A DNA stretch of 64,000 nucleotides from the NCBI GenBank assembly GCA_919902675.1, contig CAKKRH010000032.1:1270-65269 (forward strand). The letters run 5' to 3'. This DNA comes from Omnitrophica bacterium GWA2_41_15 (GTDB taxonomy: Bacteria; Omnitrophota; Gorgyraeia; Gygaellales; UBA12090). This document shows, piece by piece, positions 1,506 to 62,190 of this stretch. The position numbers were made by a program, and so were the translations under genes. Position 1 is the first letter of the stretch; each line of letters opens with the position of its first letter. The notes beneath the pieces were generated by a model, which saw nothing but the letters and a program-made list of their open reading frames with translations, ran no database searches and was not told the origin of the DNA.

Positions 1506-1526
1506 CTTAATCTCCTTTTCTTAAAG

Positions 1527-1575
1527 CCTTCAGCTATCAGCTATCGGCTGTCAGCTGAAAGCTGATAGCTGAAGG
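1527..1575. repeat. Hairpin with 15-bp perfect stem built from CAGCTAT/AGCTGA words, between rpsP and yajC
   Basis: ccttcagctatcagc (1527-1541) is the exact reverse complement of gctgatagctgaagg (1561-1575). The loop contains cagctg, and no T-run follows on either strand. Confidence 0.85.
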
Positions 1576-1593
1576 CTGATAGCTGTCAGTTGC

Positions 1594-3812: not shown

Positions 3813-4609
3813 CGCGCCGAAACTCCTTTTTTCCTTAAATAGCTTTTAACTTCTTTAATCGTCAGATCCTGATAGTGAAACAAAGACGCGGCCAGAGCCG
3901 CGTCCGCCATGCCTTCAGTCAAAACAGCGTAAAAATCTTCTTTTTTTCCGGCTCCTCCTGAAGCAATCACCGGAATACGGACCGCTCCGGTTATGGCTTT
4001 GGTCAAATCCAGGTCATAACCTTTCTTGGTGCCGTCAAAATCCATACTGGTTAACAGAATTTCACCCGCCCCGAGTTTTTCCGCTTTTTTCGCCCATTCA
4101 AACGCGTCTAACCCCGCGGCTGTTCTGCCGCCGTTGATATATACAGTCCACGGTCCACAGTCCACAGTCGACAGTCCTTTTCTGCGGACTATGGACCGTG
4201 GACTGTGGGCTAATTTCGCGTCAATTGCCACCACAATGCACTGGCTTCCGAACTTTAATGAGGCATCCCTAATCAGTTTAGGGTTTTTTACCGCGGCGGT
4301 ATTTATGGAAACCTTATCCGCTCCGGCATTAAGCAAATCCCTTATATCCCTCAAGCTGCTTATGCCGCCTCCCACCGTAAGTGGCATAAAGACATTTTCG
4401 GCAGTGCGCCTGACCACGTCTAAGATGATCTTTCTTTTTTCGGAACTGGCGGTAATATCCAGAAAAACCAGCTCATCCGCCCCTTCTTTCTCATATCTTT
4501 TGGCCGTCTCAACAGGATCACCGGCGTCTTTCAAGTTTAGAAAATTAACCCCTTTGACCACCCTGGCGTCCTTAACATCAAGGCAGGGGATAATTCTTTT
4601 GGTAAGCAT
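3809..4609 (-). CDS. hisF: Imidazole glycerol phosphate synthase cyclase subunit
   Basis: 266 aa: [18 protein letters not shown]...[13 protein letters not shown]...ASGGAG. It overlaps hisI by 4 nt. Confidence 0.92.
4144..4205. repeat. Imperfect inverted repeat of GTCCACA-type words inside the hisF CDS (in frame)
   Basis: cagtccacggtccacagtcc (4144-4163) pairs 19/20 with ggactatggaccgtggactg (4186-4205). It encodes ..[23 protein letters not shown].. in the variable segment after AIDAK. Confidence 0.8.
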
Positions 4610-4612
4610 TCC

Positions 4613-5167
4613 TTATTTTACCTTACGGTGCAGATAGATCCTTAGCTTCTCCCAAGTCGCCTTATCGATCTTGCCGGTAATTTCCAGGCCATTATCCTTC
4701 TGGAAATCACGGATTGCTTTTCTACTGCGGCTGCCCATCAGCCCATCAATGGCTCCGGGGTCATATCCTGCGTTCTGCAGGGCAATCTGAATCTGCTTAA
4801 TTGAGGAATTGGGAGTAGGCTTGTATTTTCCGGTTAAGACATCCAGGCGCTCAGCCAATTTTGCCCTCTCCTTGGCCTCTTTATCCAAAGCCTCCTGCAA
4901 GGAAGAGACCAAGCGCTCTTTTTCCTTAAGTTCAGCCTGGATTTTTTCATCAACTGATTTATCATTGAGTGACCTTTCTAAAGACGCGATCTGTTCATCT
5001 TTTTGCTTGGCCTGGGTAGAAAGTGAACTCATCTGCCGGCGTAAATCCTGAATTTCCTCATCCAGCTCTCTGCGAGAAACCGTAGCACAGCCAGCCAGCA
5101 ACAAAACCGCTTGAATTAATAACATAGTTTTATTTATCCGCATGTTTTTTTTCCTCCTTATTTTCAA
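4613..5167 (-). CDS. Coiled-coil lipoprotein with C-terminal peptidoglycan-binding (PG_binding_1-like) domain
   Basis: Lipobox LLLAGC after a signal peptide, then a charged coiled-coil middle. The C-terminus reads IQIALQNAGYDPGAIDGLMGSRSRKAIRDFQKDNGLEITGKIDKATWEKL. The gene is embedded between hisA and hisF, overlapping hisA by 4 nt. Confidence 0.7.
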   Translation of the reverse strand: MKIRRKKNMRINKTMLLIQAVLLLAGCATVSRRELDEEIQDLRRQMSSLSTQAKQKDEQIASLERSLNDKSVDEKIQAELKEKERLVSSLQEALDKEAKERAKLAERLDVLTGKYKPTPNSSIKQIQIALQNAGYDPGAIDGLMGSRSRKAIRDFQKDNGLEITGKIDKATWEKLRIYLHRKVK

Positions 5168-5886
5168 TTCTTAGTTAAAGCTACTGCCTCTTTCAGAGAA
5201 AATCTTTTTTCATACAAGGCCTTTCCCACAATTACCCCTTTAAGATTCAGACAATCCAGGCTTGCTAATTTTTTTATATCAGCCAGGGAAGAAACCCCGC
5301 CGGAGATAATAAAATCTATTCCTGACGAGCGCAAAACATTTTTTATCGCCGGGAGATTTATTCCGGAAAGGGTCCCGTCGCGGCTGATATCGGTATAGAT
5401 TACGGTCTTTAAATTAAGATTTTCCAGGCTTTTCAAATAATTTTTAAGGCTTATTTTAGCGGTCTTCCTCCAGCCGCGTAAACCCAGCTTCTGGCCAGAG
5501 GCATCCAAGCCTAAGGCGATTTTTTGGCCGAATTCCTCTATTGCCCGGCCTAAAAAATCAATGTCCTCAATCGCCCTGGTGCCCAGGATTACCCTCTTGA
5601 CACCACAATCAATTACTTTCTGAATGGCTGATAAATCCCTTATCCCGCCGCCTGCCTCAGCCGGGATATTGATTTTCTTTATAATCTTTTTGATGACCTT
5701 AAGGTTTTTCTGCCGGCCACAAATAGCTCCGTCTAAATCCACCAGATGCAAAAATTTCGCCCCCTGATCCTGCCAATCCAAGGCCACGCTCACCGGGTCA
5801 GAAGAATAAACCTTCTTATTTAGCCTGCCTTTGGTGTATCTGACCACCCGGCCTTCTTTTAAGTCAATCGCGGGAATGATAATCAT
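5164..5886 (-). CDS. hisA: ProFAR isomerase
   Basis: 240 aa: MIIIPAIDLKEGRVVR...HLVDLDGA...GGGIR...ISGGVSS. Confidence 0.9.
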   Translation of the reverse strand: MIIIPAIDLKEGRVVRYTKGRLNKKVYSSDPVSVALDWQDQGAKFLHLVDLDGAICGRQKNLKVIKKIIKKINIPAEAGGGIRDLSAIQKVIDCGVKRVILGTRAIEDIDFLGRAIEEFGQKIALGLDASGQKLGLRGWRKTAKISLKNYLKSLENLNLKTVIYTDISRDGTLSGINLPAIKNVLRSSGIDFIISGGVSSLADIKKLASLDCLNLKGVIVGKALYEKRFSLKEAVALTKN

Positions 5887-5916
5887 GCCACGTTAGGTTA
5901 GACATATTTTAAGAAA

Positions 5917-5962
5917 CTCTAAACACTAAACCATAAATCCTAAACAAACCCAAAAGCTAAAA
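5917..5962. repeat. CTCTAAACACTAAAC...AAACCCAAAA word element (copy 1)
   Basis: ctctaaacactaaac at 5917-5931 is identical to 8471-8485, and both are followed by ..taaacaaacccaaaa. Confidence 0.75.
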
Positions 5963-6589
5963 TCATTTCAATTCAACAAAGTTCTTTAACAGCCTAAGTC
6001 CTAAGTTCTGGCTTTTTTCCGGATGGAATTGACAGGCAAAGAGGTTATCCTTGCGTATTGCCGAGGCAAACTCCAGGCCGTAATCCGTAACCGCGGCAAT
6101 GATATTTTTATCTTCAGGATCAGCGTAATAAGAATGACAAAAATAAAAAAAAGAGTTGTCTGGGATATTTTTTAATATGCCGCGTTCCTTTGTTTTTCCT
6201 TTCGCGTTTTGCCTTTTGACTTTTATTTGGTTCCAGCCCATATGGGGTACCTTGAGCCTATCCGGAAAACGCCGGACCGTTCCTTTAAACACGCCCAGGC
6301 CGCGGGCACTGCCGCCTTCTTCACTTCGCTCAAAAAGAAGCTGTAGTCCCAAACATATCCCCAAAAACGGTTTTTTAAAAATATTTTCGTGTATAGTTTT
6401 AATCAAGTTTAATCTTTTGAGTTCTCGCATCGCCTCTTTTATCGCCCCTACCCCGGGTAAAACAATCTTATCCGCTCCCCGGATTATTCCGGCATCAGAG
6501 CTCACCCTGACCTCATTAGCGCCGGCTGACTCCAGGGCTTTAGCCACACTCCTTAAATTCCCCATACCGTAATCAATGACCGCGATCAT
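5963..6589 (-). CDS. hisH: Imidazole glycerol phosphate synthase glutaminase subunit
   Basis: 208 aa: MIAVIDYGMGNLRSV...LPGVGA...GICLGLQLL...HMGWN...FHPEKS. Confidence 0.9.
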   Translation of the reverse strand: MIAVIDYGMGNLRSVAKALESAGANEVRVSSDAGIIRGADKIVLPGVGAIKEAMRELKRLNLIKTIHENIFKKPFLGICLGLQLLFERSEEGGSARGLGVFKGTVRRFPDRLKVPHMGWNQIKVKRQNAKGKTKERGILKNIPDNSFFYFCHSYYADPEDKNIIAAVTDYGLEFASAIRKDNLFACQFHPEKSQNLGLRLLKNFVELK

Positions 6590-7185
6590 AAACTTCCCTT
6601 AGTAGATAATATTCCTTTTATCCGCGGGTCAATGCTCACTGCCTCCCTTAAAGCCCTGGCCAGGGCCTTAAAAACCGCCTCAATGATATGGTGTAAATCC
6701 TCACCTGAAATTATCTCAATATGCAAGGTTAGGCCCGCGTTAACCGCCAAAGCCCGCAAAAACTGTTTTAAATAATTTAGGCTGTATTCTTTACTATGGA
6801 CTATGGACTGTGGACTGTGGACTGTAAGCTTTGAGTACGGCCTACCGCTCAAATCCAGGCTTACCTCAACCAGGGCCTCATCAATGGGCACCGAGGCAAA
6901 ACCAAAACGGCGAATACCCTGTTTATCCGCCAAGGCTTTTTTTATGGCTAGACCCAAAACTATTCCCACATCTTCGTTGGTATGATGAATATCCACATCC
7001 AGATCACCCCGGGCTTTAAGCGTTAAATCAAACAAGCCGTGCCTGGCGAAAAGATTAAGCATATGGTTTAAGAAGCCTATCGGGGTGTGGATACTAAAAC
7101 TGCCTCTGCCGTCTAAATTTATCTTGAGGCTAATCCTGGTTTCCGTTGTCTTCCTCTCAATTACGGCTTTTCTTTTATTATTCAT
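6586..7185 (-). CDS. hisB: Imidazoleglycerol-phosphate dehydratase
   Basis: 199 aa: RKTTETRISLKINLDG...GDLDVDIHHTNEDVGIVLG...GEDLHHIIEAVFKALARAL. Confidence 0.9.
   Translation of the reverse strand: MNNKRKAVIERKTTETRISLKINLDGRGSFSIHTPIGFLNHMLNLFARHGLFDLTLKARGDLDVDIHHTNEDVGIVLGLAIKKALADKQGIRRFGFASVPIDEALVEVSLDLSGRPYSKLTVHSPQSIVHSKEYSLNYLKQFLRALAVNAGLTLHIEIISGEDLHHIIEAVFKALARALREAVSIDPRIKGILSTKGSL
6795..6825. repeat. Heptamer array (TATGGAC x2, TGTGGAC x2, TGT) inside the hisB CDS (in frame)
   Basis: Read directly from the sequence. It encodes TVHSPQSIVHS and uses the same word (GTCCACA/TGTGGAC) as the hisF element. Confidence 0.85.
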
Positions 7186-8441: not shown

Positions 8442-8470
8442 CTAAGTTGGGTTAAATACCTTTTGTGAAG

Positions 8471-8562
8471 CTCTAAACACTAAACAAACCCAAAAACTAA
8501 AACCCAAAACATCTATTTTTGAGTTTTGTATTTATGGTTTTGAGTTTGTTTAGAATTTAGGG
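8471..8562. repeat. Long imperfect hairpin of CTAAAC/CCAAAA words (copy 2 of the 5917 family)
   Basis: Left arm ctctaaacactaaacaaacccaaaaactaaaacccaaaac, right arm gagttttgtatttatggttttgagtttgtttagaatttaggg, partially complementary. Located between alaS and hisD. Confidence 0.7.
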
Positions 8563-8583
8563 TTTCGGATTTAAGGTTTATGA

Positions 8584-11196
8584 TTATATCGCCTGACGGA
8601 TGATTTCCTTGAACTTCTCCAGGGCTTTATCCAGACCCGCGGGATTATCTCCTCCGGCCTGGGCCATGTTCGCCCGGCCTCCTCCGGAACCTTCAATTAA
8701 AAGGGCGGCTTCTTTAATTATTTTTGAAGCGTCCAGGCCCTTGTCTACTAAGTCAGCGGATAAGCTGACTGTCAGCCAGGCCTTTTGAGCTTGCGATGAA
8801 CCCAGGCAAAGGGCATAAGAAGAAACCCTGGATTTGATCAAATCGCTTAACTGGCGCAGTAGGCCTATATCCACATCCTGATACCGCGAGCAAATCAGGC
8901 TTGAACCTTTAATGACCTCAGACTTACCGGCCAATTCTACCGTATCGCGCTTAAACAGCTCCAGCCTTAAGCGGGAAAACTCCTTTTCTAAATTCCCTAA
9001 TTTTCTTAATTTATCCTCCAGTAAGGCTAAAACCTTATCCTCTGAAGATTGGGTTAAATCTATAAGCTTAGTAATAATTTCCTGGGCCTGCCTATAGGCC
9101 TCCCAGGCGGCCTTACCGGTTGAGGCCTCTATTCTACGCACCCCCTTAGCGATAGAACCTTCAGAAATTATCTTGAATAAACCGACCTGGGAGGAATTCT
9201 CCAGGTGGGTCCCTCCGCAAAGCTCTTTAGAAAAATCCTGAATATCCACCAGGCGCACTTTGTCCTCATATTTCTCATTAAACAAGGCAATAGCGCCTGA
9301 TTTCTTTGCCGTCTTCAGGCTCATCGCTCTTTGCGAAATTTCCAAACTTAACAAAATTTTCTCCTGGACTAAATCTTCAATCCGCTTCAGGTTTTGCGCG
9401 GATATTTTATCGGAATGAATAAAGTCGAAACGCAAACGATCAGGCTCAACTAAAGAGCCGGCCTGCTGGATATGAAAACCGAGAACCTGCCGAAGTGATG
9501 CCTGTAAAAGATGGGTCGCGGTATGGGCCCGGGCGATTGCCTTTCGCCTGGAGGAATCAACCTGACAATTAACCAAATCAGCGCTTTTTAGTTTCCCCGC
9601 GCTCAAGGTGCCGCGATGCAGATACACCTTTCCTTCTTTTTGGGTATCCTCTACCTCAAAAACGCTGTTTCCTTTTATGATTCTGCCTTGATCGCCGACC
9701 TGCCCTCCGGACTCCGCGTAAAAAGGGGTTTTATCCAAAACAATCTCGCAGGGTTCTCCCCGGCCAACCGACCGGACCACTTCACCATCCTTAATTATCT
9801 TTAAAATCCCGGCTTCTTTCAGAGAAAGCTTTTGATAGCCTGAAAATTTTGTTTCTTCCAATTTGGAAATCAAGGCGCTTGCGGTAAAAATCCCCCGGCT
9901 GATTTTACTGGATTTTTTGGAACGTTCTTTCTGTTTTTCTAAATCCTGATTAAATTCTGCTTCATTAATTTCAAAGCTATTCTCTTTTGCCCAGGCTTTG
10001 GTAATTTCAAAAGGTATGCCGTAAGTATCATAAAGCTTAAAAGCGGTATGCCCGCTAGACTCAAGGCCGGATGAAGCATCCTTAAATTCATTTTTCAAAA
10101 TCCTCGGGGCATCTTTTAAAACCGAGATAAAATTCTTCTCCTCAGTATTTATAACCTCGGCAATATTTTTTGCTTTAGCCTTTAACTCCGGATAAACCCC
10201 AAAGAAAATATCCGCCACAATCGGAGTTAGTTTATACAGAAACGGCTCTTTTATTCCCAGGGTATGTCCGTGAAACCCGGATTTACGGATAAGTTTACGG
10301 ACCACATATCCTCTTTCTTCATTAGAAGGAATGACCCCGTCGTAAATAGCGAAAACAATCGCTCGAATGTGGTCAGCGATGGCATTGATCAGCGGATAGC
10401 GGATAGCGGATAGCGGATAGCTAAGAATGGCTTTAATTATGGGCTTGAAGATATCAATTTCAAAGTTGCTTTTGACTCCCTGCAGGACTGAGGCCATTCG
10501 CTCTAAACCCATACCGGTATCTATGTTCTTATTGGGAAGCGGCTCTAGGACTCCTTTGGCAAGGCGGTTAAACTGGGTAAAGACCAGATTCCAAATCTCC
10601 ACAAACCGGCCGCAGGAGCAAGCCGGACCACAATCCGGCTTTCTACAGCCGGCATCAAGCCCATAATCGAAAAAAATCTCCGAGCACGGGCCGCACGGCC
10701 CGTTGGGGCCGTCTTCAATGGCATTAGCCGGCCAGAAATTATCTTTGGCTCCTAAGCGAACAATCCTCTCCTTGGGAAAATTGACCTTTTTGCTCCAAAT
10801 AGCGCGGGCCTCGGCATCATCCTGATACACCGAAACCCAGAGCACTTCAGGCTTAAGCTTTAACTCTTCGGTCAGAAATTCCCAGGCCCAGAGAATTGCC
10901 TCTTCTTTAAAGTAGGAGCCAAAAGAAAAATTACCCAGCATTTCAAAGAAAGTATGGTGACATGCGGTTACCCCCACCTTATCCAGGTCATCGGTTCTCA
11001 AACAACGTTGACAGCTGACTGCCCGGTTAAAATCTGAAACCTGCCCCATAAATTCATTCTTGAATTGGGCCATCCCAGCGGAAGTAAAAAGCACCGTAGG
11101 GTCATCCACGGGAACAAGCGAAGCTGAAGGTATAAGCTTATGCGCTCTTTTGGCGAAAAAATCAAGATATCTTTTACGTAATATATCCGTATTCAT
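8584..11196 (-). CDS. alaS: Alanine--tRNA ligase
   Basis: 870 aa with a class II core (FTSAGM, GNFSFGSYFK), an editing domain (HTATHLL...CGGTH) and a C-terminal DHHA1-like region (GGGRANMAQAGG). Confidence 0.95.
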   Translation of the reverse strand: MNTDILRKRYLDFFAKRAHKLIPSASLVPVDDPTVLFTSAGMAQFKNEFMGQVSDFNRAVSCQRCLRTDDLDKVGVTACHHTFFEMLGNFSFGSYFKEEAILWAWEFLTEELKLKPEVLWVSVYQDDAEARAIWSKKVNFPKERIVRLGAKDNFWPANAIEDGPNGPCGPCSEIFFDYGLDAGCRKPDCGPACSCGRFVEIWNLVFTQFNRLAKGVLEPLPNKNIDTGMGLERMASVLQGVKSNFEIDIFKPIIKAILSYPLSAIRYPLINAIADHIRAIVFAIYDGVIPSNEERGYVVRKLIRKSGFHGHTLGIKEPFLYKLTPIVADIFFGVYPELKAKAKNIAEVINTEEKNFISVLKDAPRILKNEFKDASSGLESSGHTAFKLYDTYGIPFEITKAWAKENSFEINEAEFNQDLEKQKERSKKSSKISRGIFTASALISKLEETKFSGYQKLSLKEAGILKIIKDGEVVRSVGRGEPCEIVLDKTPFYAESGGQVGDQGRIIKGNSVFEVEDTQKEGKVYLHRGTLSAGKLKSADLVNCQVDSSRRKAIARAHTATHLLQASLRQVLGFHIQQAGSLVEPDRLRFDFIHSDKISAQNLKRIEDLVQEKILLSLEISQRAMSLKTAKKSGAIALFNEKYEDKVRLVDIQDFSKELCGGTHLENSSQVGLFKIISEGSIAKGVRRIEASTGKAAWEAYRQAQEIITKLIDLTQSSEDKVLALLEDKLRKLGNLEKEFSRLRLELFKRDTVELAGKSEVIKGSSLICSRYQDVDIGLLRQLSDLIKSRVSSYALCLGSSQAQKAWLTVSLSADLVDKGLDASKIIKEAALLIEGSGGGRANMAQAGGDNPAGLDKALEKFKEIIRQAI
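10392..10421. repeat. Heptamer array (GCGGATA x4.3) inside the alaS CDS (in frame)
   Basis: The sequence reads gcggata gcggata gcggata gcggata gc. It encodes LSYPLSAIRYPLI just before the conserved IADHIR motif. Confidence 0.85.
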
Positions 11197-14568: not shown

Positions 14569-14609
14569 AATAACGCCTCCTATTGTTAAATTTTTAAATG
14601 AAAAAGTTG

Positions 14610-14642
14610 AGGTTTAGGTTGAGACAAACTCAACCTAAACCT
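14610..14642. repeat. 14-bp perfect-stem hairpin (AGGTT words) within the predicted recA 5' UTR
   Basis: aggtttaggttgag (14610-14623) is the reverse complement of ctcaacctaaacct (14629-14642). It lies between the predicted recA promoter and the recA ATG. Confidence 0.8.
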
Positions 14643-14689
14643 TGACCTTAACCTTTATGATTAGTTTCCACTAAAAAAGTGTGGAAATT

Positions 14690-16228: not shown

Positions 16229-16513
16229 TTAAACAAATTCAACCTTTAAATGCTTATTCAACGCCCGCGCCAGCTTTATTAATGTCCCTAAAGAATAACT
16301 TCTGTTGTGAATATCCTCTAACCGGGACACTGTTTGTTGGGTAGTGTGTAAGCGCTTAGCTAATTCCCGTTGAGTTAATCCTTCCTTTTGTCTAATCTTA
16401 GCGGTTTGAATAGCTAAAGAAGCGTAAGTCTCTTCTTCATCAAACGCTTTTTTAAATTCTGGGTTTTTCAGATCTTCCCTTAGCTTGTCTCTAAATTTTC
16501 TTAGGCCTCTCAT
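16229..16513 (-). CDS. XRE-family HTH antitoxin (HigA-like)
   Basis: 94 aa with HTH segment GLTQRELAKRLHTTQQTVSRLE. It overlaps the upstream toxin gene by 4 nt. Paralog at 63326-63619. Confidence 0.8.
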   Translation of the reverse strand: MRGLRKFRDKLREDLKNPEFKKAFDEEETYASLAIQTAKIRQKEGLTQRELAKRLHTTQQTVSRLEDIHNRSYSLGTLIKLARALNKHLKVEFV

Positions 16514-16869
16514 AACTCAATTTCACCCCCTTTATATCTTTGAAAAAAATCTCCCATTATTCGTTCTGCCCTTTCAATCTCTCCCGCGGGAACCTTATCG
16601 GTTTTTTTTAAAAAGCCGTGTGTGAGAATAATCTTCTTACCAAAGAAAAAATATAAAAACCGATAATGGTTTGAGCCAAAAACAACTCTAAGCTCCCGGA
16701 TCTTCCCCCTAACAACATCCGCGAATGGCCTGGTCAAATTCGGCCCTTCTTCCTCGAGTTTTTCTATCCACTTCTCTATCTTGGCGCGTATCTTAATGGG
16801 TAAATTATCTAAAAACTCGTCCGCGGGACAATTCCCTCTGCTATCTTCATAAGACAATACTTCATACAT
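16510..16869 (-). CDS. Gp49/HigB-like toxin (RelE/ParE superfamily)
   Basis: 119 aa: ...IRELRVVFGSNHYRFLYFFFGKKIILTHGFLKKTDKVPAGEIERA. The toxin-first gene order is typical of HigBA. Paralog at 63626-63988. Confidence 0.75.
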   Translation of the reverse strand: MYEVLSYEDSRGNCPADEFLDNLPIKIRAKIEKWIEKLEEEGPNLTRPFADVVRGKIRELRVVFGSNHYRFLYFFFGKKIILTHGFLKKTDKVPAGEIERAERIMGDFFQRYKGGEIEL

Positions 16870-16888
16870 ATATTAGTCCCTCATTTAT

Positions 16889-16917
16889 AATTTACACTAT
16901 TTTTAATGTATTGTCAA
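16889..16917 (-). promoter_or_regulatory. Predicted TA promoter (TTGACA-17 nt-TAAATT)
   Basis: On the minus strand, TTGACA (16917-16912) is followed by a 17-nt spacer and TAAATT (16894-16889). A GAGGGA RBS then precedes the toxin ATG at 16869. Confidence 0.6.
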
Positions 16918-17016
16918 GAAAATCTTTGAAATTATCTCGTTTTGTAATAAGCATGAATAGCGGCTTGGAGGAAATTATTTTGCTCTAAAGCATAAAGATT
17001 CTGCGTAATTTGGGCA

Positions 17017-17057
17017 TAAAAAATACTGCGTAGTACGCAATACATACTACGCAGTAT
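17017..17057 (-). terminator. Rho-independent terminator downstream of the lipoprotein pseudogene
   Basis: On the minus strand, a 13-bp stem atactgcgtagta/tactacgcagtat with a 9-nt loop is followed by TTTTTT. Coordinates are good to about +/-2 nt. Confidence 0.7.
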
Positions 17058-17174
17058 AGCACAATTAAATTTAGCTACAATATCCTTTGCTTATTTTACG
17101 CACTCCCGATACACACCCCTGTCGCTGTCAAAAAATAGAATCCTCCCCTTTTTTCTATCGGACTCCGGCAACTA

Positions 17175-20020: not shown

Positions 20021-20226
20021 AATTGCTCTCTTTTCTTAGCGCAGCACAAAAACCAAATAACCAATTTCTAATAATCAAATAATAACCAATCACCAATTAT
20101 CAAACGTTCGGTTATTGATAATTCGGCCGCGTTCAAACCCCGCCCTTTAGAGCGGGGAAAAGTTACGCCGCTCTTTTGTTTATTTTGGTTATTGGTTATT
20201 AAATAGCTACCGCTTTTTAGTGGTAG
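20021..20226. repeat. Intergenic long hairpin built from AATAACC/GGTTATT words with inner GC hairpin
   Basis: The left side reads caaataaccaat...aataaccaatcaccaatt and the right side reads ttggttattggttatt. There is an inner ccccgc/gcgggg hairpin. The stem aatagctacc/ggtagctatt overlaps the stop of the next gene. Confidence 0.7.
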
Positions 20227-21302: not shown

Positions 21303-21460
21303 CCCGGAATTTGCAATAGTAATGGCATTCGCCGCCAAATAAGGGCGCATCTTCGTCAGAAAAAAGCGCTTACATACTAAAAGTATGCGCGCACTTTTTT
21401 CTGCCAAATCTGCATCCTTCTTTGGCGTCTCGGTGCCGCATTCCTATTGCAAAATCCGGG
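21303..21460. repeat. 158-bp hairpin element, copy 1
   Basis: About 98% identical to 33687-33844. The arms cccggaatttgcaatag... and ...ctattgcaaaatccggg fold into a long imperfect stem-loop around ttacatactaaaagtatg. Confidence 0.9.
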
Positions 21461-23713: not shown

Positions 23714-24164
23714 ATAGTTCTTCCAGAGATTGAGATATTACCTTGGTAGAAAATAATGCCGGCATAAAATTATTATCTTCCTTCCAGCGGGGAACGATAT
23801 GCAGGTGAAGATGATTGGGTATGCCCGCTCCGGAGACCCTGCCGATATTCATTCCTATATTAAAACCATCCGGCCTAAGCGCGCGTTTGAGCAAAAGCCG
23901 CATTTTGTTCAAGACAGCGAATAAATCCAATATTTCATCGGCATTAAGCTGACCCGGGTCCTTTATGTGCCTATAAGGACAAATCATTAGGTGTCCGTTA
24001 TTATAAGGGAATTTATTTAGGATGGAAAAGACATGCCTGGAGCGATAAATCACCAAATTCTTCTTATCTGTCTTCTTCTGAGAAACCCCGCAAAAAAGAC
24101 ATCCTTTTGTTTTCTTGGAATTGCTGATATAGCCTATGCGCCAGGGAGCCCAGAGTCTGTCCAT
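23688..24164 (-). CDS. HIT family hydrolase
   Basis: The HLHLHIVPRW histidine triad is present. I prefer ATG at 24164 (MDRLWAPWR...) over the TTG at 24182, which lies inside the repeat array. Confidence 0.8.
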   Translation of the reverse strand: MDRLWAPWRIGYISNSKKTKGCLFCGVSQKKTDKKNLVIYRSRHVFSILNKFPYNNGHLMICPYRHIKDPGQLNADEILDLFAVLNKMRLLLKRALRPDGFNIGMNIGRVSGAGIPNHLHLHIVPRWKEDNNFMPALFSTKVISQSLEELYDNLRERI

Positions 24165-24173
24165 ATCATTATT

Positions 24174-24328
24174 AATAACCAATAACCAAACATTTAGTAC
24201 TTGGTTATTGGTTATTATTTGGTTATTGGAAATTGGAAATTGGTGATTGGTTATTGGTTATTGGTTATTGGTTATTGGTTATTGGTTATTGGTTATTATT
24301 TGGTTATTGGAAATTGGTGATTGGTGAT
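24174..24328. repeat. 16-bp hairpin plus about 19-unit heptamer array (TGGTTAT/TGGAAAT/TGGTGAT)
   Basis: aataaccaataaccaa (24174-24189) pairs with ttggttattggttatt (24201-24216). The tandem 7-mers run 24202-24328, with seven perfect TGGTTAT units at 24248-24296. Confidence 0.9.
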
Positions 24329-24339
24329 TGTAATTCATT

Positions 24340-26489: not shown

Positions 26490-27176
26490 CTAACGCGATA
26501 AATAATAATAAGGATTTTGCGAGATGCAGCCTTTCCTTATCTGAAAATGCATTAATCCGCCGCATTGAGCGATAGCCATCCCGCGGGTTATATAATCACC
26601 CGGCTTGACTAATATACGCGACAATAAAGCGTAAACACTCATCAGGCCCTCAGGATGAGAAATAATTATGGTCTTTCCATAACCGCTGAATTTATCTTGC
26701 GCGAAAACAACCCTTCCTGAAGCTGAAGCCACAATATCGGATTGCGCGTATAGGCGCAGGGTAAGGCCCTTGCTGGGTGAATTCCCGATTTTATCCCCAA
26801 AGCCATTGACAATTTTACCCTTCGCCGGCCAGATAAAATCTTCCGGCACACCGGTATTCAATGAATCCATGGAAAGCGCTCTATGTTTATCAGGGATAAG
26901 AATTGACTGTCCGCTGGCAATGAGAGTTGAATCAGCGATAGCATTAGCCTTGAGGATTTCCTCGATACTAACCCCGTAAATCCTGGCAATCCTCCACAAG
27001 GTCTGACCCTTTTGGACGCGGTGATACAGCACTTGCGACGGTTGTATTGTTTTTTGAGGCACGGACAACGCGGCCTGCCGGGGGGCTAACTCAACCGTGG
27101 CACAGCCTGATAAAACAGTTAACAAGGAGCAGATGACAGTCGAGAGAAAATATCTTTTAAATCTTTTATTGAGCAT
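26490..27176 (-). CDS. LysM + M23 peptidase lipoprotein
   Basis: Start trimmed to MLNKRFKRYF... (ATG 27176), with lipobox LSGC. LysM segment YHRVQKGQTLWRIARIYGVSIEEILKAN and an M23-like C-terminus. The longer ORF-track start overlaps the tRNA. Confidence 0.8.
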   Translation of the reverse strand: MLNKRFKRYFLSTVICSLLTVLSGCATVELAPRQAALSVPQKTIQPSQVLYHRVQKGQTLWRIARIYGVSIEEILKANAIADSTLIASGQSILIPDKHRALSMDSLNTGVPEDFIWPAKGKIVNGFGDKIGNSPSKGLTLRLYAQSDIVASASGRVVFAQDKFSGYGKTIIISHPEGLMSVYALLSRILVKPGDYITRGMAIAQCGGLMHFQIRKGCISQNPYYYLSR

Positions 27177-27203
27177 CTTGGCTAAATTTACAAACGGTAA
27201 AAG

Positions 27204-27274
27204 AGCGGGTGAGCGGAATCGAACCGCCATAAACAGCTTGGGAAGCTGCCATTCTACCACTGAATTACACCCGC
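27204..27274 (-). tRNA. tRNA-Gly (anticodon CCC)
   Basis: The minus strand reads GCGGGTGTAATTCAGTGGTAGAATGGCAGCTTCCCAAGCTGTTTATGGCGGTTCGATTCCGCTCACCCGCT. It folds as a cloverleaf with 7-bp acceptor, D arm ATTC/GAAT, anticodon loop TTCCCAA and T loop TTCGATT. CCA is not encoded. Confidence 0.9.
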
Positions 27275-28548
27275 ACACATTCCTCAACTAATTTTATCGA
27301 ACAAAACTCACTGCACATAGTGCAGACATCCTCGACTTTCGGTTTAGAGCTATGGCGATATTCCCGGGCTCTTTCCGGGTCAATTGACAAGGATATCTGT
27401 TTATCCCAATCCCTTTTTTTTCTGGCCAAAGACATTTCCCTGTCCCAGCTTAAGGCGCCCTTAACCCCTTTAACAATATCCGCGCTGTGAGCGGCAATCC
27501 TCGAGGCAATCACCCCTTCCCTCACATCATCCACCGAAGGATGCCTTAAATGTTCGGCCGGGCTGACCACGCATAGAAAATCCGCGCCCAGGCTTGCCGC
27601 TAACGCCCCTCCGATAGCCCCCGAGATGTGGTCCCGGGTTGAAGCGATATCAGTTACCAGCGGCCCTAAAACATAAAATGGGGCGTTGTCGCAAAGCTTT
27701 TTTTGGAGGTCTATGTTTTTTTGAATCTGATCCAAAGGCACATGTCCCGGCCCCTCAATCATCACTTGGACATTTCTTTTTCGTGAACGCCGGGCGAGTT
27801 TTCCCAAAAGCCTCAACTCCCCTATCTGGGCGCTATCAGTAGCATCCAATATTGAACCCGGCCTTAGTCCATCGCCCAAACTTAAGGTAACATCATACTC
27901 ATACGCGATATCCAGGATTTCATCGAAACACTCATAAAACGGGTTTTCTTTTTTATTGTTAAACATCCAGTTGGCTAATATCGCCCCTCCCCGGCTGACG
28001 ATATCCAAAACACGCGGACTTTTCTTAACCAACGCGGCTGTTTTTTGAGTAACTCCGGAGTGGATAGTCATAAAATCCACTCCGTCTTCGGCCTGAGAAC
28101 GAATAACCCCCAGGATATCCTCGGCAGTCATCTTAAGCAGAGAACCTTTATTTTTAGCCGCGCTTTGAGCCGCCTCATATATAGGAACGGTACCAAAAGG
28201 AATATCCGAATCCTTAATCAGAGTTTTTCTTATTTTAGGGATATCTCCGCCTACGCTTAAATCCATTACCGTATCCGCGCCGACTGAAACCGATACCTTT
28301 AACTTTTGAAGCTCATCGCCGACATCAATTTCATCGCCGGATGTCCCGATATTCACGTTTATTTTAGTAGACAAGCCTTTACCAATCGCGCATGGTTTCT
28401 TAATCCGACGTTTTTTATTATTAGGAATAACAATTATCCCCGAAGCGATACCCTTCTTCAAAAAAGAAATACTTACCCCTTCCTTTTTAGATACCGCTTC
28501 CATCAGTTCGGAGGATTTATTATTCAATGCTAATTCTAATTGAGTCAT
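27265..28548 (-). CDS. thiC: Phosphomethylpyrimidine synthase
   Basis: 427 aa, ThiC-like throughout, with the C-terminal CTMCSEFCSIK cluster motif. The last 10 nt overlap the tRNA-Gly 5' end. Confidence 0.9.
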   Translation of the reverse strand: MTQLELALNNKSSELMEAVSKKEGVSISFLKKGIASGIIVIPNNKKRRIKKPCAIGKGLSTKINVNIGTSGDEIDVGDELQKLKVSVSVGADTVMDLSVGGDIPKIRKTLIKDSDIPFGTVPIYEAAQSAAKNKGSLLKMTAEDILGVIRSQAEDGVDFMTIHSGVTQKTAALVKKSPRVLDIVSRGGAILANWMFNNKKENPFYECFDEILDIAYEYDVTLSLGDGLRPGSILDATDSAQIGELRLLGKLARRSRKRNVQVMIEGPGHVPLDQIQKNIDLQKKLCDNAPFYVLGPLVTDIASTRDHISGAIGGALAASLGADFLCVVSPAEHLRHPSVDDVREGVIASRIAAHSADIVKGVKGALSWDREMSLARKKRDWDKQISLSIDPERAREYRHSSKPKVEDVCTMCSEFCSIKLVEECVRV

Positions 28549-28553
28549 AGTTT

Positions 28554-28588
28554 TAGAGGTTAGAGGTTAGAGGTTGGGGGTTAGGTTT
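28554..28588. repeat. Heptamer array (TAGAGGT x3, TGGGGGT, TAGGTTT) spanning the thiE stop and the thiE-thiC spacer
   Basis: Read directly from the sequence. It encodes the thiE C-terminus ..LTPNL and the stop. The same word occurs at 62173-62190. Confidence 0.85.
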
Positions 28589-32672: not shown

Positions 32673-32862
32673 TGTCGCGCCCTCGTTTTAAAATCACCAA
32701 TAACCAAAGGTTGAGGCTAAGGCTTAGGTTAAGCTTGTCTCAACCTTAACCTCATCCTCAACCTTTATAAATATTGGTTATTAATTAGTTAGTACTGAAA
32801 AAGTATCATTTTTATGATTACAAGTTCCTGATGGGTTTTTCAGCGGGAACTAATTATCATTG
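32673..32862. repeat. Intergenic compound hairpin (AATAACC plus AGGTTGAGG/AGGTTAAGC words)
   Basis: caccaataaccaaaggttgaggctaaggcttaggttaagc ... ctcaaccttaacctcatcctcaaccttt..attggttatt. It is followed by ttagttagtactgaaaaa..tttttatgattaca, which resembles 43601-43628. Confidence 0.75.
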
Positions 32863-33686: not shown

Positions 33687-33844
33687 CCCGGAATTTGCAA
33701 TAGTAATGGCATTCGCCGCCAAATAAGGGCGCATCTTCGTCAGAAAAAAGCGCTTACATACTAAAAGTATGCGCGCACTTTTTTCTGCCAAATCTACACC
33801 CTTCTTTGGCGTCTCGGTGCCGCATTCCTATTGCAAACTCCGGG
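33687..33844. repeat. 158-bp hairpin element, copy 2
   Basis: It differs from 21303-21460 at about 3 positions and abuts the accC stop codon (33845-33847). Confidence 0.9.
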
Positions 33845-35203: not shown

Positions 35204-35273
35204 TATAATGGAGTAACGGTTTACGGTTTATGGTTTAGAGCAAACCATAAACCATGCCTAATAAACGCGTTAA
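35204..35273. repeat. Intergenic hairpin of GGTTTA/AACCAT words
   Basis: ggtttatggttt agag caaaccataaacc lies between accB and accC. Confidence 0.75.
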
Positions 35274-40148: not shown

Positions 40149-43100
40149 TCACAAGAGATAATTTACCAAGATCTTAATCTGTTCCGCATCGAATGGCTTA
40201 CCCACTACTGGTATGGCCTTCCTTTTAACATATTCCTTTAGCTTCTCAATTTCTTCCGCATATCCCGACATGATTAATATTGGCATATCTTTTGTCTGCG
40301 CGTTCTCCTTAAGCATACCAATTACTTCATAACCACTCATCGGCATTTTTATATCCAGCATTAACAAATCAGGAATAGCAGTTTTTATTTTTTCTAATGC
40401 TTCCTTTCCATCACCGGCTTCGCTAAAATTAGAATACCCGCTTGCCTGTAAAATTTTCCTTAAAACATTCCTCACTTCTGGCTCATCATCAACAATCATA
40501 ATGGACTTCTTTAATCTTGTTTCTCTTTCGCTAACACAAAAACCGTAGACCCGCTCCAATAAATCCTTACTATTACTTGCATCGCCAGGATAGGTAGCGT
40601 ATCCATATGAAAAACCCGTCCTAAGTTGTTCATCAATTTCAAAAACAGACACTTTTATAATCATCTTCAATCGTGTCATCATGTTGGATGCCTCTTGTTT
40701 GTTAACTTGTATAAAAACAATGATCTCATTTTCACTCCCTTTAATTACAAAATCCCTGCTTCGTATAACTTTTTCTAAAGCCGTCCCTATTGAAAGGAAA
40801 ACTTTTTGTACTCTATCTTTTCCGGACTCTTTCTCAACCTCTAAATAATTATCTAACCTGATAATAAATATTGAAAATTCCTTATTTTCTTTTTTAGCTT
40901 CTCTAATTCTCTCCTCTATCGTTTCGCGCAGGAACTCTTCTTTGTTATACTTCGGCAGGGTAAAGCTAAACTTGCTGCCCTTGCCAAGGCGGCTTTCCAC
41001 CCAAATCTTACCGTGATGCAGCTCAACCAGGGCTTTAGCTATAGAAAGGCCTAAACCCGTGCCTTTTTCGCCGAATCCGGGGACGCGGTCAAACTGCTGA
41101 AACTTGCTAAATACCTTAGGAAGGTCATCCCCTGAGATGCCCACACCAGTATCAGCTACGCCGCACTCTACTTCATTTTCTTTCTCTAAAACCGAAATCT
41201 CTATTGAGCCTTCTTTAGTGAATTTAAGAGCGTTGGCGATAAGGTTGGTCAAGACCTCGATTATCTTCTCCGTGTCAGCATAAATATACAGCTGTTTTTC
41301 AGGAAGGTTGACTTTCAATTCCAGCCCAGCATCTCTTGCGCGTTTAGAAAAAGAGGAGATAAGTCCACTAATTAAACTGTTAAGGTCAGCTGAGCCTCTT
41401 TTTAGCTCCACCTTTCCCGCCTCAATCTTGGAGATATCCAAGAGGCTGTTGATAATATTTGCCAATCTATCTATATTCTTCTTTGCGGTAGTAAGAATTT
41501 TTTCCTGCTTTTCATTTACCTTGCCGGCAAGTCCGTCTAAAACTAGAGCCAGGCCTTCTTTGGTAATAGAAAGCGGGGTCCTGAGTTCATGGGAGACTAT
41601 AGAGACAAATTCGGTCTTCATTCGATTCACTTCTTTCTCTTTGGTGATATCTCTAAGAATAATAACTATACCGATAGTTTCGTTCTTTGCGTTTCTCACC
41701 GGCGCTGTATCACAGTGTAAGGATACAGGCTCTCCCTGCACAGATACCGTTAGATCCTTAAAAACTAAACAGCTAATATCTGCACACTTTTTTAATACCT
41801 CCTCTAAACCAATGGCCTCGGCCTTTTCTTTCCATATTTTAGCCGTAACCTGCTCCTCGAACCTAAAACCCAACAACTGCCTGGCCCGCGGATTTATAAC
41901 CATCACCTCACCGCATTCATCCACCATCACCACGCCCTCAACCATGCTCTCTACCATACTCTCCATCTTTGACTTTTCAGCAGTGATCACTGCCCGCAGT
42001 CTTTCAATAGCATTAGAGGCCTGATTGGCAATGGTGCAGGTAAGCTCAATATCCTCTTCTGAAAAGGCATTCTCTTTACAGCTGGAGACATTAATCATCC
42101 CGACAGTTTTACCATGCGCTGTAAAAGGAACATTAAAGAAACTATGTAATTCCTTAAATTCCCTTTTTTCTTTATGGTTTTGGCTATCGGTAGCCAAACC
42201 ACGGCCTTCTGGCCTGGAGGTTACCTCTGTAGTGCTGGGAATAAGCATGGCGCTCAGGCGTTTCTTACGGATATTCTCTCCAGTTAAGATAGAGGTAGAG
42301 TCAATCAGGCCATCTTTTACCTCATCCGTAAATTTAGCACTTTCGGAATAGACGGGCTTTAGAGTAATGTTGGCGGTATGGGTATCAAATAAAAGCGAGG
42401 CGCAGATATCATAATTGATTGTCTTGAACAATGATTCCATGATAAACTTGAGTAACGTCTGATAATCCAAGGTATAAGAAATAGCATTGGAAATCTCATA
42501 TAAAACAGATAATTCCAAAGTCCTCTCTTTTACCTTCTTCTCGAGGTCTTTAGAATATGATTCAATCTCAGCCTTTGCTTTGGTAAGTTCGGCGGTTCGT
42601 TCTTCAATCATCCCTTCTAAACTTTTAGAATATTTTTCAATTTCTGCTTTTGCCCCTGCCAAATCCTCCATCATATTCAAGGTTGCTTCCTGGGTTTGGG
42701 CTAAATCTTTGGTGCGCTCCTTAGCCTTCTTCTCTAAAGTCTTGGCAAATTCCTCTAATTCTGCCTTAGACTTCTCTAAGTTAGCAATCAGCCCATTTAT
42801 CCGGCGCATATCGTGGGCTACGCCGACAATGCCGATTATTCGTCGTTCTTCAGGAGCTTTCAGCTTTCGGCTTTCAGCTTTCGGCTCTAGATCTTCTGCT
42901 GATAGCTGAGAGCTGATGGCTGATGGCTGACTCTCATACATTACTGAACCAGAGAAACTCATCGGTATCTTCCCGCCATTTTTAGTCACATAAATCAAAT
43001 CAAAATCGCGTACCGAACCTTCCTCAACCAGTTTCCTTAGGCGTGTTCCCTTAAGGAGAAGTTCTTCCTCAAAAATATTTTCCACCGGCTGACCGATCAG

Positions 43101-43589: not shown

Positions 43590-43621
43590 ATTTAGTTAAT
43601 ACTGAAAAATCCTCTTTTTAT

Positions 43622-43706: not shown

Positions 43707-43738
43707 AAGTTTCTGTCAGCTTTTTCAGCAGAAACTAT

Positions 43739-44374: not shown

Positions 44375-44408
44375 GTTGATTTTCCTCCCGGTTGCGCTCT
44401 ATTGCATT

Positions 44409-46514: not shown

Positions 46515-46538
46515 GATTTTATTCCTCCTTTTTAAAAT

Positions 46539-46615
46539 GATTACACAGATTTTTGAATAAGATTACACAGATACACTTTTAATCTGTGTAATCTGCTTTT
46601 ATAATCTGTGTAATC
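46539..46615. repeat. GATTACACAGAT box array (2 forward, 2 reverse), second locus
   Basis: gattacacagat at 46539-50 and 46561-72, atctgtgtaatc at 46582-93 and 46604-15. The last box overlaps the cheA stop. A single box also occurs at 45444-45455. Confidence 0.9.
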
Positions 46616-48242
46616 ATCGTATGTCTTTTTTTAACGCCAATTTCCTCTTAGAAAGTATGAGGTTAGCTGCATCTAAAATAAGCGCGACCTCGCCAGAGCC
46701 AAGAATAGTGCAGCCGGTAAAATATTTGCCCTCCTTGGCTAACCTTAACGGCTTATGCACAATCTCCTGGGTCTGGCCTAACTCGTCTACCGCCAGACCT
46801 AATCGGTCTTCATCCTTTCGGACAATGACGATAGGCTGTGAATTTTGGTCTAAGCGGGGCAGATTAAACAACTCATTTAAACGGGTGATAGGGATATCCT
46901 CGCCTTCAAAGACAATGGCCTCATAATTCAACATCCCCTTTATATCTTCTTTTTTTACATGAATTAACCTCTCCACATTGGCTAAAGAAATGGCGTATGC
47001 TTTAGGGCCTACCTTGACGAATAAGACCTTAAACACTGCCAGGGTTAAAGGTATCTCTAAGATAAATTTTGTGCCTTTTAAGGGAAGCGACTCTACTTTC
47101 ACTGAGCCGCCCAAAGATTCAATCCTTTGCTTGACGATATTCAGGCCAAAGCCTCTGCCTGAAATTTGGGTAACCTCTTTGGTAGTGCTCACTCCGGAAA
47201 AGAGCGCGTTAACCAATTCTTCCTGAGCTGGATGGCTGGAAATTAGCTTGAGCCTTGAGGCATACCTTTTTACTTCTTCCCAATCAATGCCTCTTCCATC
47301 ATCGCTAACCTCTATAACCGCAAATCCACGCGCTCTTTTAGCAGAGAGTTTTAAGGTGGCTTGAGAAGGTTTTTTCAGGCCCTCTCTTTCTTTGGGGATT
47401 TCTATGCCATGGTCAATGGCATTTCTGACTAAATGCACCAGGGGCTCAGCCAAGGCCTCCACAATTGAGCGGTCTAATTCTATGTCGCCGCCAACCATCT
47501 CTAAATTAACCTCTTTTTTCTCTTGCTTAGCTAAGTCTCTTACTAAGCGTGGAAAACGGTTAAAGACGAAATCTAAAGGCACGGTGCGCGACTGCATAAT
47601 ATTAAACTGCAGGTCAGAGACTAATCTGGTTAAGGTATCTACGAAACCGGAAAGCTCGGGGTTTTGCAAAGTTTCCTTAATCCGCTCTAATCCCAGTTTA
47701 TTAATCAACAGCTCTTCGGATAAGCGCATCAATAAATCCAGCCTTTCTACCTTAACCTCGATGCTCTTGATCTTCTCAAGAGAGGCAGGCTCTTCCAGGG
47801 ATCCCTCGGAAGCCGCGGTTTCGTCGTGCCTGCCTGCCGGCAAGGCAGGCGTCGTGCGTATTGCGTCGCACGTAGCCAGAGCCTGTAATTTTTTGACTAA
47901 ACCCGCGGTGTCCAGTTCTTCTTTATCCTTGGAAACTGCTTTTAGGCTTGCTTCTAAGGCATCAAAACATTCAAATAATAAATCGGCGCAAGCGCCAACC
48001 TTTAATTCCTTCTTTTTTGTCCTGACTAAGACATCCTCTATGGCATGGCATAGGGCAGAGGTCTTGAAATAACGCGCGATTCCGGATATGCTCTTGTAGG
48101 TATGGCAGGCGTGCAGCATAGGGCCAAACAGGATCAGATTACCCGGGGTCTTCTCTAATTTAATCAGAGAACTATTCAGGGTATTCAGGTATTGCCTTGC
48201 CTCTCTTAGGTAAGTGTCTTTGTATTTGTCTATAATCTGCAT
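46614..48242 (-). CDS. cheA: Chemotaxis histidine kinase CheA (no recognisable P2 domain)
   Basis: 542 aa. It has Hpt (ACHTYKSISG), dimerisation and HATPase domains (DHGIE...GRGFGLNIV) and a C-terminal CheW-like domain. The P1-P3 linker carries a palindromic low-complexity insert (47822-47872). Confidence 0.9.
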   Translation of the reverse strand: MQIIDKYKDTYLREARQYLNTLNSSLIKLEKTPGNLILFGPMLHACHTYKSISGIARYFKTSALCHAIEDVLVRTKKKELKVGACADLLFECFDALEASLKAVSKDKEELDTAGLVKKLQALATCDAIRTTPALPAGRHDETAASEGSLEEPASLEKIKSIEVKVERLDLLMRLSEELLINKLGLERIKETLQNPELSGFVDTLTRLVSDLQFNIMQSRTVPLDFVFNRFPRLVRDLAKQEKKEVNLEMVGGDIELDRSIVEALAEPLVHLVRNAIDHGIEIPKEREGLKKPSQATLKLSAKRARGFAVIEVSDDGRGIDWEEVKRYASRLKLISSHPAQEELVNALFSGVSTTKEVTQISGRGFGLNIVKQRIESLGGSVKVESLPLKGTKFILEIPLTLAVFKVLFVKVGPKAYAISLANVERLIHVKKEDIKGMLNYEAIVFEGEDIPITRLNELFNLPRLDQNSQPIVIVRKDEDRLGLAVDELGQTQEIVHKPLRLAKEGKYFTGCTILGSGEVALILDAANLILSKRKLALKKDIR

Positions 48243-62138: not shown

Positions 62139-62172
62139 TTATATCCGAATTTGGACAGCAACAACCAATTAC

Positions 62173-62190
62173 TAACCTCTAACCTCTAAC
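62173..62190. repeat. TAACCTC x2.5 word array between aroF and tyrA
   Basis: taacctc taacctc taac is the reverse complement of the GAGGTTA word in the 28554-28588 array. Confidence 0.75.

Follow-up and report, generated by a model that had tools for sequence, protein, structure and literature searches.

Repetitive sequences of the short tandemly repeated type (STRRs), in the form of hairpins of 7-bp repeats located between co-transcribed genes, have been described in cyanobacteria (PMC2670836), and heptameric simple sequence repeats (SSRs) are over-represented in some bacteria, a preference for about four units being reported for GGGNATC, a heptameric SSR of Xanthomonas and Nostoc (PMC4692102). 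Here, we analysed a 64-kb stretch of a Candidatus Omnitrophota genome (contig CAKKRH010000032.1, positions 1,270 to 65,269; hereafter the window), in which two histidine biosynthesis genes, hisF and hisB, carry in-frame arrays of the same 7-nt word, GTCCACA. According to the title of a 1997 report by Vioque, as listed among the references of PMC2858038, STRRs reportedly also occur inside a functional RNase P RNA gene. The STRR words, which we take to be CCCCAGT (STRR1), TTGGTCA (STRR2) and CAACAGT (STRR3), would each be one base away from words of the window (GTCCACA, TTGGTTA).

The arrays of Omnitrophota resemble STRRs and heptameric SSRs in their tandem 7-nt units, their dispersion and their several word families, as well as in their location, mostly between co-directional genes, and in often forming hairpins (PMC2670836; PMC4692102). 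They differ in their host, which is Omnitrophota and, by peptide signature, also Verrucomicrobiota instead of a cyanobacterium, in their words, in being translated in frame in core enzymes at clade-conserved sites, and in a rapid coordinated rewriting of words that is not reported in PMC2670836 or PMC4692102. As the words of the window are not G-rich, the G-quadruplex rationale is inapplicable to them. No paper containing the array sequence, or dealing with tandem repeats in Omnitrophota, was found in the literature.

A preliminary description of this locus had compared the arrays with the Rickettsia palindromic elements (RPEs). Like the hisF hairpin, RPEs are palindromic repeats that stand in frame in conserved protein genes, add a tolerated peptide and leave the gene functional. 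An RPE is a discrete element ~100-150 nt long, follows the consensus of its family and lacks tandem periodicity within it, whereas the arrays of the window span 30-66 nt, have only the 7-nt word in common, can be single-armed, may replace native sequence and change word at a fixed site; their host, moreover, is neither Rickettsia nor a close relative. What is left of the likeness is a tolerated in-frame palindromic segment in HisF; membership of the family and a common origin are not.

Two histidine biosynthesis genes carry in-frame heptamer arrays

The hisF array has two arms (coordinates of all features are given in Table 1). On the mRNA strand, its layout is (GYCCAYR)x4, then AGAAAAGG, then (ACYGTSG)x4, with left-arm units GCCCACA, GTCCACG, GTCCATA and GTCCGCA, followed by GAAAAGG, and right-arm units ACTGTCG, ACTGTGG, ACTGTGG and ACCGTGG, followed by ACT. 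The inverted repeat claimed in the preliminary description was recovered by repeat tools as two arms of 25 nt, at 4143-4167 and 4182-4206, 92% complementary and spaced by 14 nt, and Tandem Repeats Finder reports a period of 7 with 5.0 copies at 4143-4177. The corresponding RNA segment folds with -49.3 kcal/mol (z of -9.1 to -9.5), none of 200 shuffles being as good. The open reading frame (ORF) stays open through the hairpin, which encodes residues L133-P153, and the protein matches a solved HisF structure end to end (E = 5e-100) with a 16-residue gap opposite the insert; as judged from this alignment, the segment adds 16 aa net to the protein. Strand beta5 (...VVAIDAK) carries D130, the counterpart of the D in the conserved AIDAK motif, and L133-P153 is positioned between beta5 and strand 154-158. 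In the AlphaFold model, built with 68 homologs, a strand spanning residues 125-133 is followed by residues 137-150 with a confidence score (pLDDT) below 50 and then by strand 154-158, the insert forming a low-confidence protruding loop. Note that an array unit (CCG TGG ACT) now supplies the codon of the conserved Trp154, which precedes VYINGGR.

The hisB array has a single arm, reading ACA, GTCCACA, GTCCACA, GTCCATA, GTCCATA, GT on the mRNA strand (period 7, 4.7 copies, 96% matches in Tandem Repeats Finder). The ORF is again open, and the array is translated as TVHSPQSIVHS (T121-S131). HisB matches a solved imidazoleglycerol-phosphate dehydratase (IGPD) end to end (E = 1e-54) with a gap of only 2 residues at the array, and T121-S131 aligns with existing residues of plant IGPD; with 2 aa more than canonical IGPD, the array thus replaces a native loop instead of adding 11 aa. 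In the AlphaFold model, T121-S131 comprises the end of strand 117-122 and the loop before helix 136-150, and has the lowest internal confidence of the model (mean pLDDT 68).

The two arrays, 2.6 kb apart, have nothing in common beyond the 7-nt word. The hisB array and the hisF left arm are in the same reading phase, with 23/27 nt identical. Since 7 is not a multiple of 3, such an array is read in all three frames and its peptide has a period of 7 aa (VHSPQSI / VHS...). The preliminary description had stated that the GTCCACA word stands in frame in both genes, that both genes stay open with the repeats translated, and that the segments fall in loops; the intact ORFs, the common phase, the translations, which give the quoted peptides, and the full-length structure matches and models all agree with it. 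Its reading of both segments as lineage-specific insertions has to be divided: insertion holds for hisF and not for hisB, and lineage specificity is supported by the canonical loops of other phyla (see below).

Two further genes of the window carry in-frame arrays. The array in alaS, like those in hisF and hisB, is made of head-to-tail 7-nt units, and like that of hisB it has a single arm; it replaces native loop sequence (-1 aa), and compared to E. coli AlaRS the length is not changed on balance. A two-arm hairpin is located in an inter-domain linker of a 1146-aa sensor kinase (40149-43589).

Short repeats may be mis-assembled, and the locus was compared with other assemblies. Six contigs, which stem from different samples and were produced by different assemblers, encode the identical HisF protein; the three that were aligned agree throughout the hairpin DNA, another two match the window at 100% identity along their full length, and the hisF hairpin is present in five other assemblies of this same population. 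An assembly artefact, named beforehand as what would undermine the observation, thus finds no support in these contigs. Within the window, the bare 7-mer is found 6 times against 2.4 expected, which is not significant, and the dimer GTCCACAGTCCACA, with up to 3 mismatches, is found 13 times against 1.5 expected, a count reached by 0/100 shuffles. Given the intact ORFs, the dimer above chance, the identical HisF on six contigs and the identical hairpin DNA wherever compared, we conclude that the arrays are real.

The same sites carry other words in relatives

Contigs encoding homologs were collected individually to obtain the DNA of close relatives, among which the gene order alaS-hisD-hisB-hisH-hisA-PG-binding gene-hisF-hisI-trpE is kept. 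At the hisF site, directly after the AIDAK motif, one- or two-armed heptamer arrays are present in the DNA of 10 relatives, with the words GTCCAYA/ACTATCG, GTCWATA, CATATGG/CCATAAG, GTTCAKA/ACGAATC, CGAACCA and GTACAGA. At the hisB site, after SGRPY, relatives carry 4-5 units of CRGCTNT, CAGCTTT, CCGTTTA or AAAGTCA with the same total length. Arrays at the HisF, HisB and HisH sites extend across the clade down to ~65% protein identity.

The protein sequences give a wider view of the same sites. The HisF loop is above canonical length in 105/120 homologs, the remaining 15/120 having the canonical short loop. Loop peptides are identical at a lag of 7 residues for 21% of positions in these 120 HisF homologs and for 28% in the HisB homologs, other lags giving 3-10%; as 3 x 7 nt make 7 codons, this periodicity is the protein signature of 7-nt units. 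One HisB homolog (P0191) is longer by 7 aa, i.e. by 21 nt or three units, and keeps the frame. In other phyla, the loops at the HisF and HisB sites are short and canonical, without lag-7 periodicity; the HisF control was a scan of genome contigs with HisF, in which the matches listed were mostly from other phyla. Long inserts free of repeats were seen in the HisF loop of a few Nitrospirota, which indicates that this loop is permissive and nothing more.

Nested within arrays of relatives are GC-rich palindromes of 20-40 nt (L087 790-815, L092 ~4950-4975, L268 ~2560-2580), for example CCTGCCTGCCGG(A)CAGGCAGG, which encodes PACRQAG. In L267, one same nested element is found in both hisF (~5420-5460) and hisB (~2815-2855).

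Array words change fast, usually alike in every unit, and are shared between genes

We then compared the window with a strain from a neighbouring well (H43), represented by contigs L087 and L269, which are 99.4% identical in their overlap and whose flanks match the window at 95-98% identity. As its hisF right arm, L087 has ACTATCG x4 vs ACTGTSG x4 in the window, 8/31 positions being different with the same substitutions repeated in each unit, and the hisB array is made of ACAGTTC-type units in L269 vs ACAGTCC in the window, with 10/33 positions different. The arrays of these ~97%-identical strains thus diverge at 26-30% of positions, usually by the same base change in each unit; the alaS array is identical in the window and L269. 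The window hisF also lacks 12 nt of native sequence (K-R-W-Q) adjoining the array when compared to L087 739-879, and L087 hisF carries a nested 24-nt insert instead.

The right-arm word ACTATCG is common to four lineages (L087, L088, L090 and L091), and ACAGTTC-type peptides are found in the nearest HisB relatives; the states of the window are therefore the derived ones. As an outcome, the hisF right arm of the window now matches its own left arm in a near-perfect hairpin, the hairpins of relatives having z values of -5 to +0.8 vs those below -9 in the window, so that conservation of the hairpin across lineages was rejected. The derived hisB array, likewise, now matches the hisF left arm. On these comparisons, the sharing of a word by hisF and hisB is recent and specific to the lineage of the window.

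Sharing within a genome recurs in relatives with other words. hisF and hisB of L267 have ~70 nt in common, heptamers and a nested 39-nt hairpin, in the same frame; hisF of L268 carries AAAGTCA units and a nested CCTGCC...GGCAGG palindrome, matching the HisB peptide of P0180; and in L094 the hisF word (ACGAACC) is one base from the hisH word (ACGAATC). This recurrence fits templated copying among arrays better than independent origins.

In hisH itself, the window shows a degenerate period-7 stretch, at a region where L094 hisH (2791-2822) has GAATCAC x4.5. HisH length varies from 202 to 233 aa among relatives. In L269 (4839-4940, vs 5826-6101 of the window), ~175 nt of the hisH 3' end and spacer are missing and HisH ends after residue 162; coverage is 4x there, and this may be an assembly error.

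The arrays belong to a period-7 class in the window and in the phylum

The proteins closest to those of the window are named Candidatus Omnitrophota or Omnitrophica WOR_2 and come from groundwater metagenomes. In the window, 10 strong arrays were found at period 7 and at most one at every other period from 4 to 12. With a lower threshold, 18 period-7 arrays were counted, vs 0-2 in 20 block shuffles. A set of 17 loci from Omnitrophota, 140 kb in all, gave 19 arrays of period 7 and none of other periods, and 553 kb from other phyla gave 4 period-7 arrays. Words vary by array (TTGGTTA x19, TTAGAGG, TCAGCTR, TCTGTTT, AGCGGAT and others), and they recur at unlinked loci within the window. The arrays are mainly intergenic, and the majority of spacers between co-directional genes contain hairpins with arms of short tandem repeats (Table 1). 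The TTGGTTA word is found again at 20185-20200 and 32770-32800.

Table 1. Coordinates of the arrays, hairpins and host genes in the window
Feature	Position	Strand	Basis or remark
Intergenic heptamer hairpin, TCAGCTR	1520..1589	unstranded	same word family as the right arm at 42898-42930
hisF, imidazole glycerol phosphate synthase cyclase subunit, 266 aa	3809..4609	minus	ORF, solved-structure match, AlphaFold model; host gene of the hairpin
Two-arm heptamer hairpin in hisF, 66 nt	4143..4208	minus	repeat calls, RNA fold, strain comparison
Degenerate period-7 stretch in hisH (KVKRQNAKGKTKERG)	6200..6224	minus	period-7 scan and L094 comparison; weak
hisB, imidazoleglycerol-phosphate dehydratase, 199 aa	6586..7185	minus	ORF, solved-structure match, AlphaFold model; host gene of the single-arm array
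Single-arm heptamer array in hisB, GTCCAYA x4.7 on the mRNA strand, 33 nt	6793..6825	minus	Tandem Repeats Finder, relatives
Intergenic hairpin of short-period repeats	8467..8566	unstranded	hisD-alaS spacer
In-frame alaS array, CTATCCG x4.4, all units identical, encodes SYPLSAIRYPL	10391..10421	minus	Tandem Repeats Finder
Intergenic hairpin, arms of short tandem repeats (GGTTNAG units)	14595..14657	unstranded	inverted-repeat call
Longest array of the window, TTGGTTA x19 (24201-24330) with inverted AATAACC arm	24161..24330	unstranded	repeat calls
TTAGAGG x4.6 array	28553..28584	unstranded	thiE-thiC spacer
Intergenic hairpin, short-tandem-repeat arms, TTGGTTA-family flanks	32706..32766	unstranded	inverted-repeat call
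Intergenic heptamer hairpin, GGTTTAT / ATAAACC	35204..35273	unstranded	repeat calls
In-frame two-arm hairpin, (CAGCYAT)x4 ... (GAAAGCY)x4	42855..42930	minus	linker after PAS domain of sensor kinase
Intergenic hairpin, repeated unit GATTACACAGAT	46537..46617	unstranded	word also at 43621-43707
CTAACCT x2.7 array, reverse complement of the TTAGAGG word	62172..62190	unstranded	repeat calls

GTCCAYA arrays beyond this genome

A scan of metagenomes for three GTCCAYA units returned at least 120 contigs, with 53 arrays in long open frames of housekeeping genes among the matches listed. From conserved motifs, the host genes are LeuRS, MoeA, TruA, Fmt, FabD, MiaB, UvrA, Der and PurH, of which UvrA alone was confirmed by search. 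The array peptides read VHSPQST..., or GLWTVDC... in antisense orientation. Among the matches listed, array length peaks at 30-32 nt in coding sequences and goes up to 145 nt in non-coding ones. The GC content of the contigs ranges from 0.24 to 0.70, and one contig was placed, from its UvrA, in Verrucomicrobiota. As triple units in viral contigs, GTCCACA gives 12 matches and three control heptamers of the same composition 7, 17 and 11; the idea of GTCCACA as a special word was rejected, the controls being equally common. About half of all heptamer classes are stop-free in all six frames.

In the Verrucomicrobiota UvrA (L131 ~4130-4157; homologs P0241-P0360), a Cys-x2-Cys motif is followed by a hypervariable loop of 15-62 aa, whose peptides look heptamer-derived (e.g. 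...DSGLRTVDSGL, NDEFQMTNG...IRHSSFVI). On account of this loop, the array phenomenon is probably wider than Omnitrophota, extending to Verrucomicrobiota.

Proposed templated copying and the alternatives

The explanation that we find reasonably probable is that the hisF and hisB arrays are members of an STRR-like heptanucleotide class that pervades this genome and those of its relatives, kept uniform by templated copying and filtered by selection to permissive loops. Arrays of this class typically count about four units in each arm, are built of one arm or of an inverted pair forming a hairpin, and lie mostly in spacers between co-directional genes, a minority being within genes. A genic array would persist only where the site is a permissive loop, where the word is stop-free in the three forward frames, where the array as a whole has a length that preserves the frame (with a peak at 30-32 nt), and where the length of the loop is tolerable, neighbouring native codons being lost as the array becomes the loop. 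Not being static insertions, arrays would be kept periodic and have their words rewritten by templated copying at the DNA level, from unit to unit within one array, from arm to arm within a hairpin, as in quasi-palindrome correction, or between separate arrays of one genome, as ectopic conversion. GTCCACA would recently have passed from the left arm of hisF into its right arm, creating the near-perfect hairpin, and also into the hisB array. Template switching that perfects inverted repeats would yield the right-arm change observed in hisF, and conversion among dispersed repeats would yield the word sharing between hisF and hisB; both processes, quasi-palindrome correction and gene conversion, are established in model organisms, and we infer their action here from sequence comparison only. 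The coding copies, we suggest, are neutral passengers and not functional elements.

Transposition-like copying of a discrete short element, i.e. an array with or without an inverted partner that survives where it is in frame, in the manner of RPEs or of the small transposable elements with inverted repeats known as MITEs, is unlikely in our judgement. Such an element would account for one word in one phase in two genes 2.6 kb apart, for the composite of array and nested hairpin carried by both hisF and hisB of L267, for the in-frame GTCCAYA arrays in dozens of unrelated housekeeping genes on at least 120 metagenome contigs, some of which have an A-rich loop and an inverted arm, for L137 TruA, which looks like a clean 10-aa insertion, and for the sharp peak of genic array length at ~30 nt. 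However, the consensus stops at the 7-nt word, no terminal repeats and, at the array borders, no target duplications were observed, in hisB and alaS the array makes no net insertion, controls occur as often as GTCCACA, and orthologous sites retain arrays with a changed word. Near-identical strains are set apart by substitutions running through the units and not by one of them lacking the array: in the strain ~97% identical to the window, the sites are filled and altered, where MITEs would leave empty ones. No transposase, REP-associated tyrosine transposase (RAYT), reverse transcriptase or Y1 transposase is encoded among the 60 ORFs of the window. The arrays are also reminiscent of repetitive extragenic palindromic (REP) sequences and their REPIN-RAYT systems, and of the small dispersed repeats (SDRs) of Nostoc, which are short hairpin-forming repeats located mostly in spacers, and the nested GC-rich palindromes in arrays of L092, L267 and L268 resemble such elements. 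In contrast to these, no conserved palindrome is found among the arrays of the window, nor a RAYT gene in its 64 kb; small palindromes of this kind appear to insert into the heptamer arrays, which would serve as their substrate and would not be such palindromes themselves.

Hairpins selected as nucleic-acid structures, acting in RNA processing or stability, in translational pausing or coupling, or in protein binding, with arms that compensate each other, seem to us quite improbable. For the STRR hairpins of cyanobacteria, roles in transcript stabilisation or translational coupling have been suggested (PMC2670836), the arrays are kept at three his sites over the clade, the words of the two arms co-vary between lineages, and the majority of two-arm versions fold better than shuffles (z of -2 to -9.5). 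Nevertheless, several lineages, e.g. L094 (z = +0.8) and L007 (z = 0), have a lone arm that does not fold, the units of most relatives each contain one mismatch, 15 of the 120 HisF homologs do without the long loop, and the hisB and alaS arrays are single-armed. In addition, no U-tract follows the hisF hairpin, which the terminator scan did not flag, terminator-like sites being at chance level, and the Rfam scan of the window gave one tRNA only, with no family matching the hairpin; a selected RNA structure is thus unlikely, the hairpin being neither conserved, nor terminator-like, nor matched in Rfam. Heptanucleotide repeats drive phase variation in some pathogens, e.g. Haemophilus (PMC8262952), and each 7-nt unit gained or lost shifts the frame, so that hisF or hisB could be switched off and on as contingency loci. 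This is very improbable here, as the window and five further assemblies of its population have identical arrays, all in frame, the copy number is low (about four units) and the hosts are core biosynthesis genes and an essential tRNA synthetase; all recovered homologs, P0191 included, are in frame, although these are database gene calls that could miss frameshifted alleles. To an assembly or sequencing artefact we assign next to no probability, given the agreement between contigs described above and arrays that are in frame and conserved over hundreds of homologs.

Several points weigh against neutral arrays maintained by templated copying. The census covers 64 kb of this genome, and the copying mechanism is inferred by comparing sequences. 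The homology tracts, of ~30 nt, lie at the lower end of what RecA-dependent conversion can use. Neither the clustering at about four units nor a period of 7, and not 5, 6 or 8, is obviously explained by simple slippage. That arrays have persisted at the same three his-gene sites throughout a deep clade could be a sign of function and not of neutrality. The HisB proteins P0156 and P0157 are 76% identical to the window protein overall, yet they carry TVHSPQSIVHS, whereas closer relatives differ, and recurrent insertion of a mobile array would equally explain this identity. Finally, the nested palindromes of L087, L092, L267 and L268 indicate that genuinely mobile short elements are active here too. 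More speculative, and distinctly unlikely in our view, is an active process indifferent to the word and specific for the 7-nt period, which in Omnitrophota and Verrucomicrobiota, and perhaps in cyanobacteria and others, would write and rewrite arrays of about four units. It would be enzyme-driven, by a stuttering polymerase, primase or reverse transcriptase, or by a dedicated template-switching activity, and, if true, would be an unrecognised source of loop diversification in core proteins, including the loops of essential enzymes.

Non-triplet repeats can inhabit essential enzymes over long evolutionary periods, read in three frames and forming the loop itself, and near-identical strains with unit-wide substitutions make template switching or short-tract conversion accessible to study in bacteria that are not in culture. 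In practice, array segments make proteins look more divergent than they are, disturb alignments and the placing of domain boundaries, and add low-complexity peptides (VHSPQST..., GLWTVDC...) to many metagenome-predicted proteins. The origin and function of STRRs have been a puzzle for decades, and arrays in Omnitrophota, probably also in Verrucomicrobiota, allow comparative tests.

Other features of the window

Between hisA and hisF (4613-5167), the window encodes a coiled-coil protein with a PG_binding_1 domain, found at the same place in nearly all Omnitrophota loci examined. Near-identical palindromes of ~95 nt with 46-nt arms are located in separate spacers (21333-21427 and 33717-33811) and represent a dispersed palindromic element unrelated to the heptamer arrays. 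Two Gp49-like genes (DUF891, toxin-type) are found at 16510-16869 and 63626-63988, and long perfect hairpins occupy spacers neighbouring Gp49-like genes (16870-17174 and 44375-44592). A tRNA gene on the minus strand (27204-27274) overlaps the 5' end of the mechanically called ORF at 26490-27287, whose start was probably set too far upstream. Within the gene of a 1322-aa chemoreceptor (50556-54524), 8.6 copies of a 276-bp unit (51909-54269) encode ten consecutive HAMP domains.

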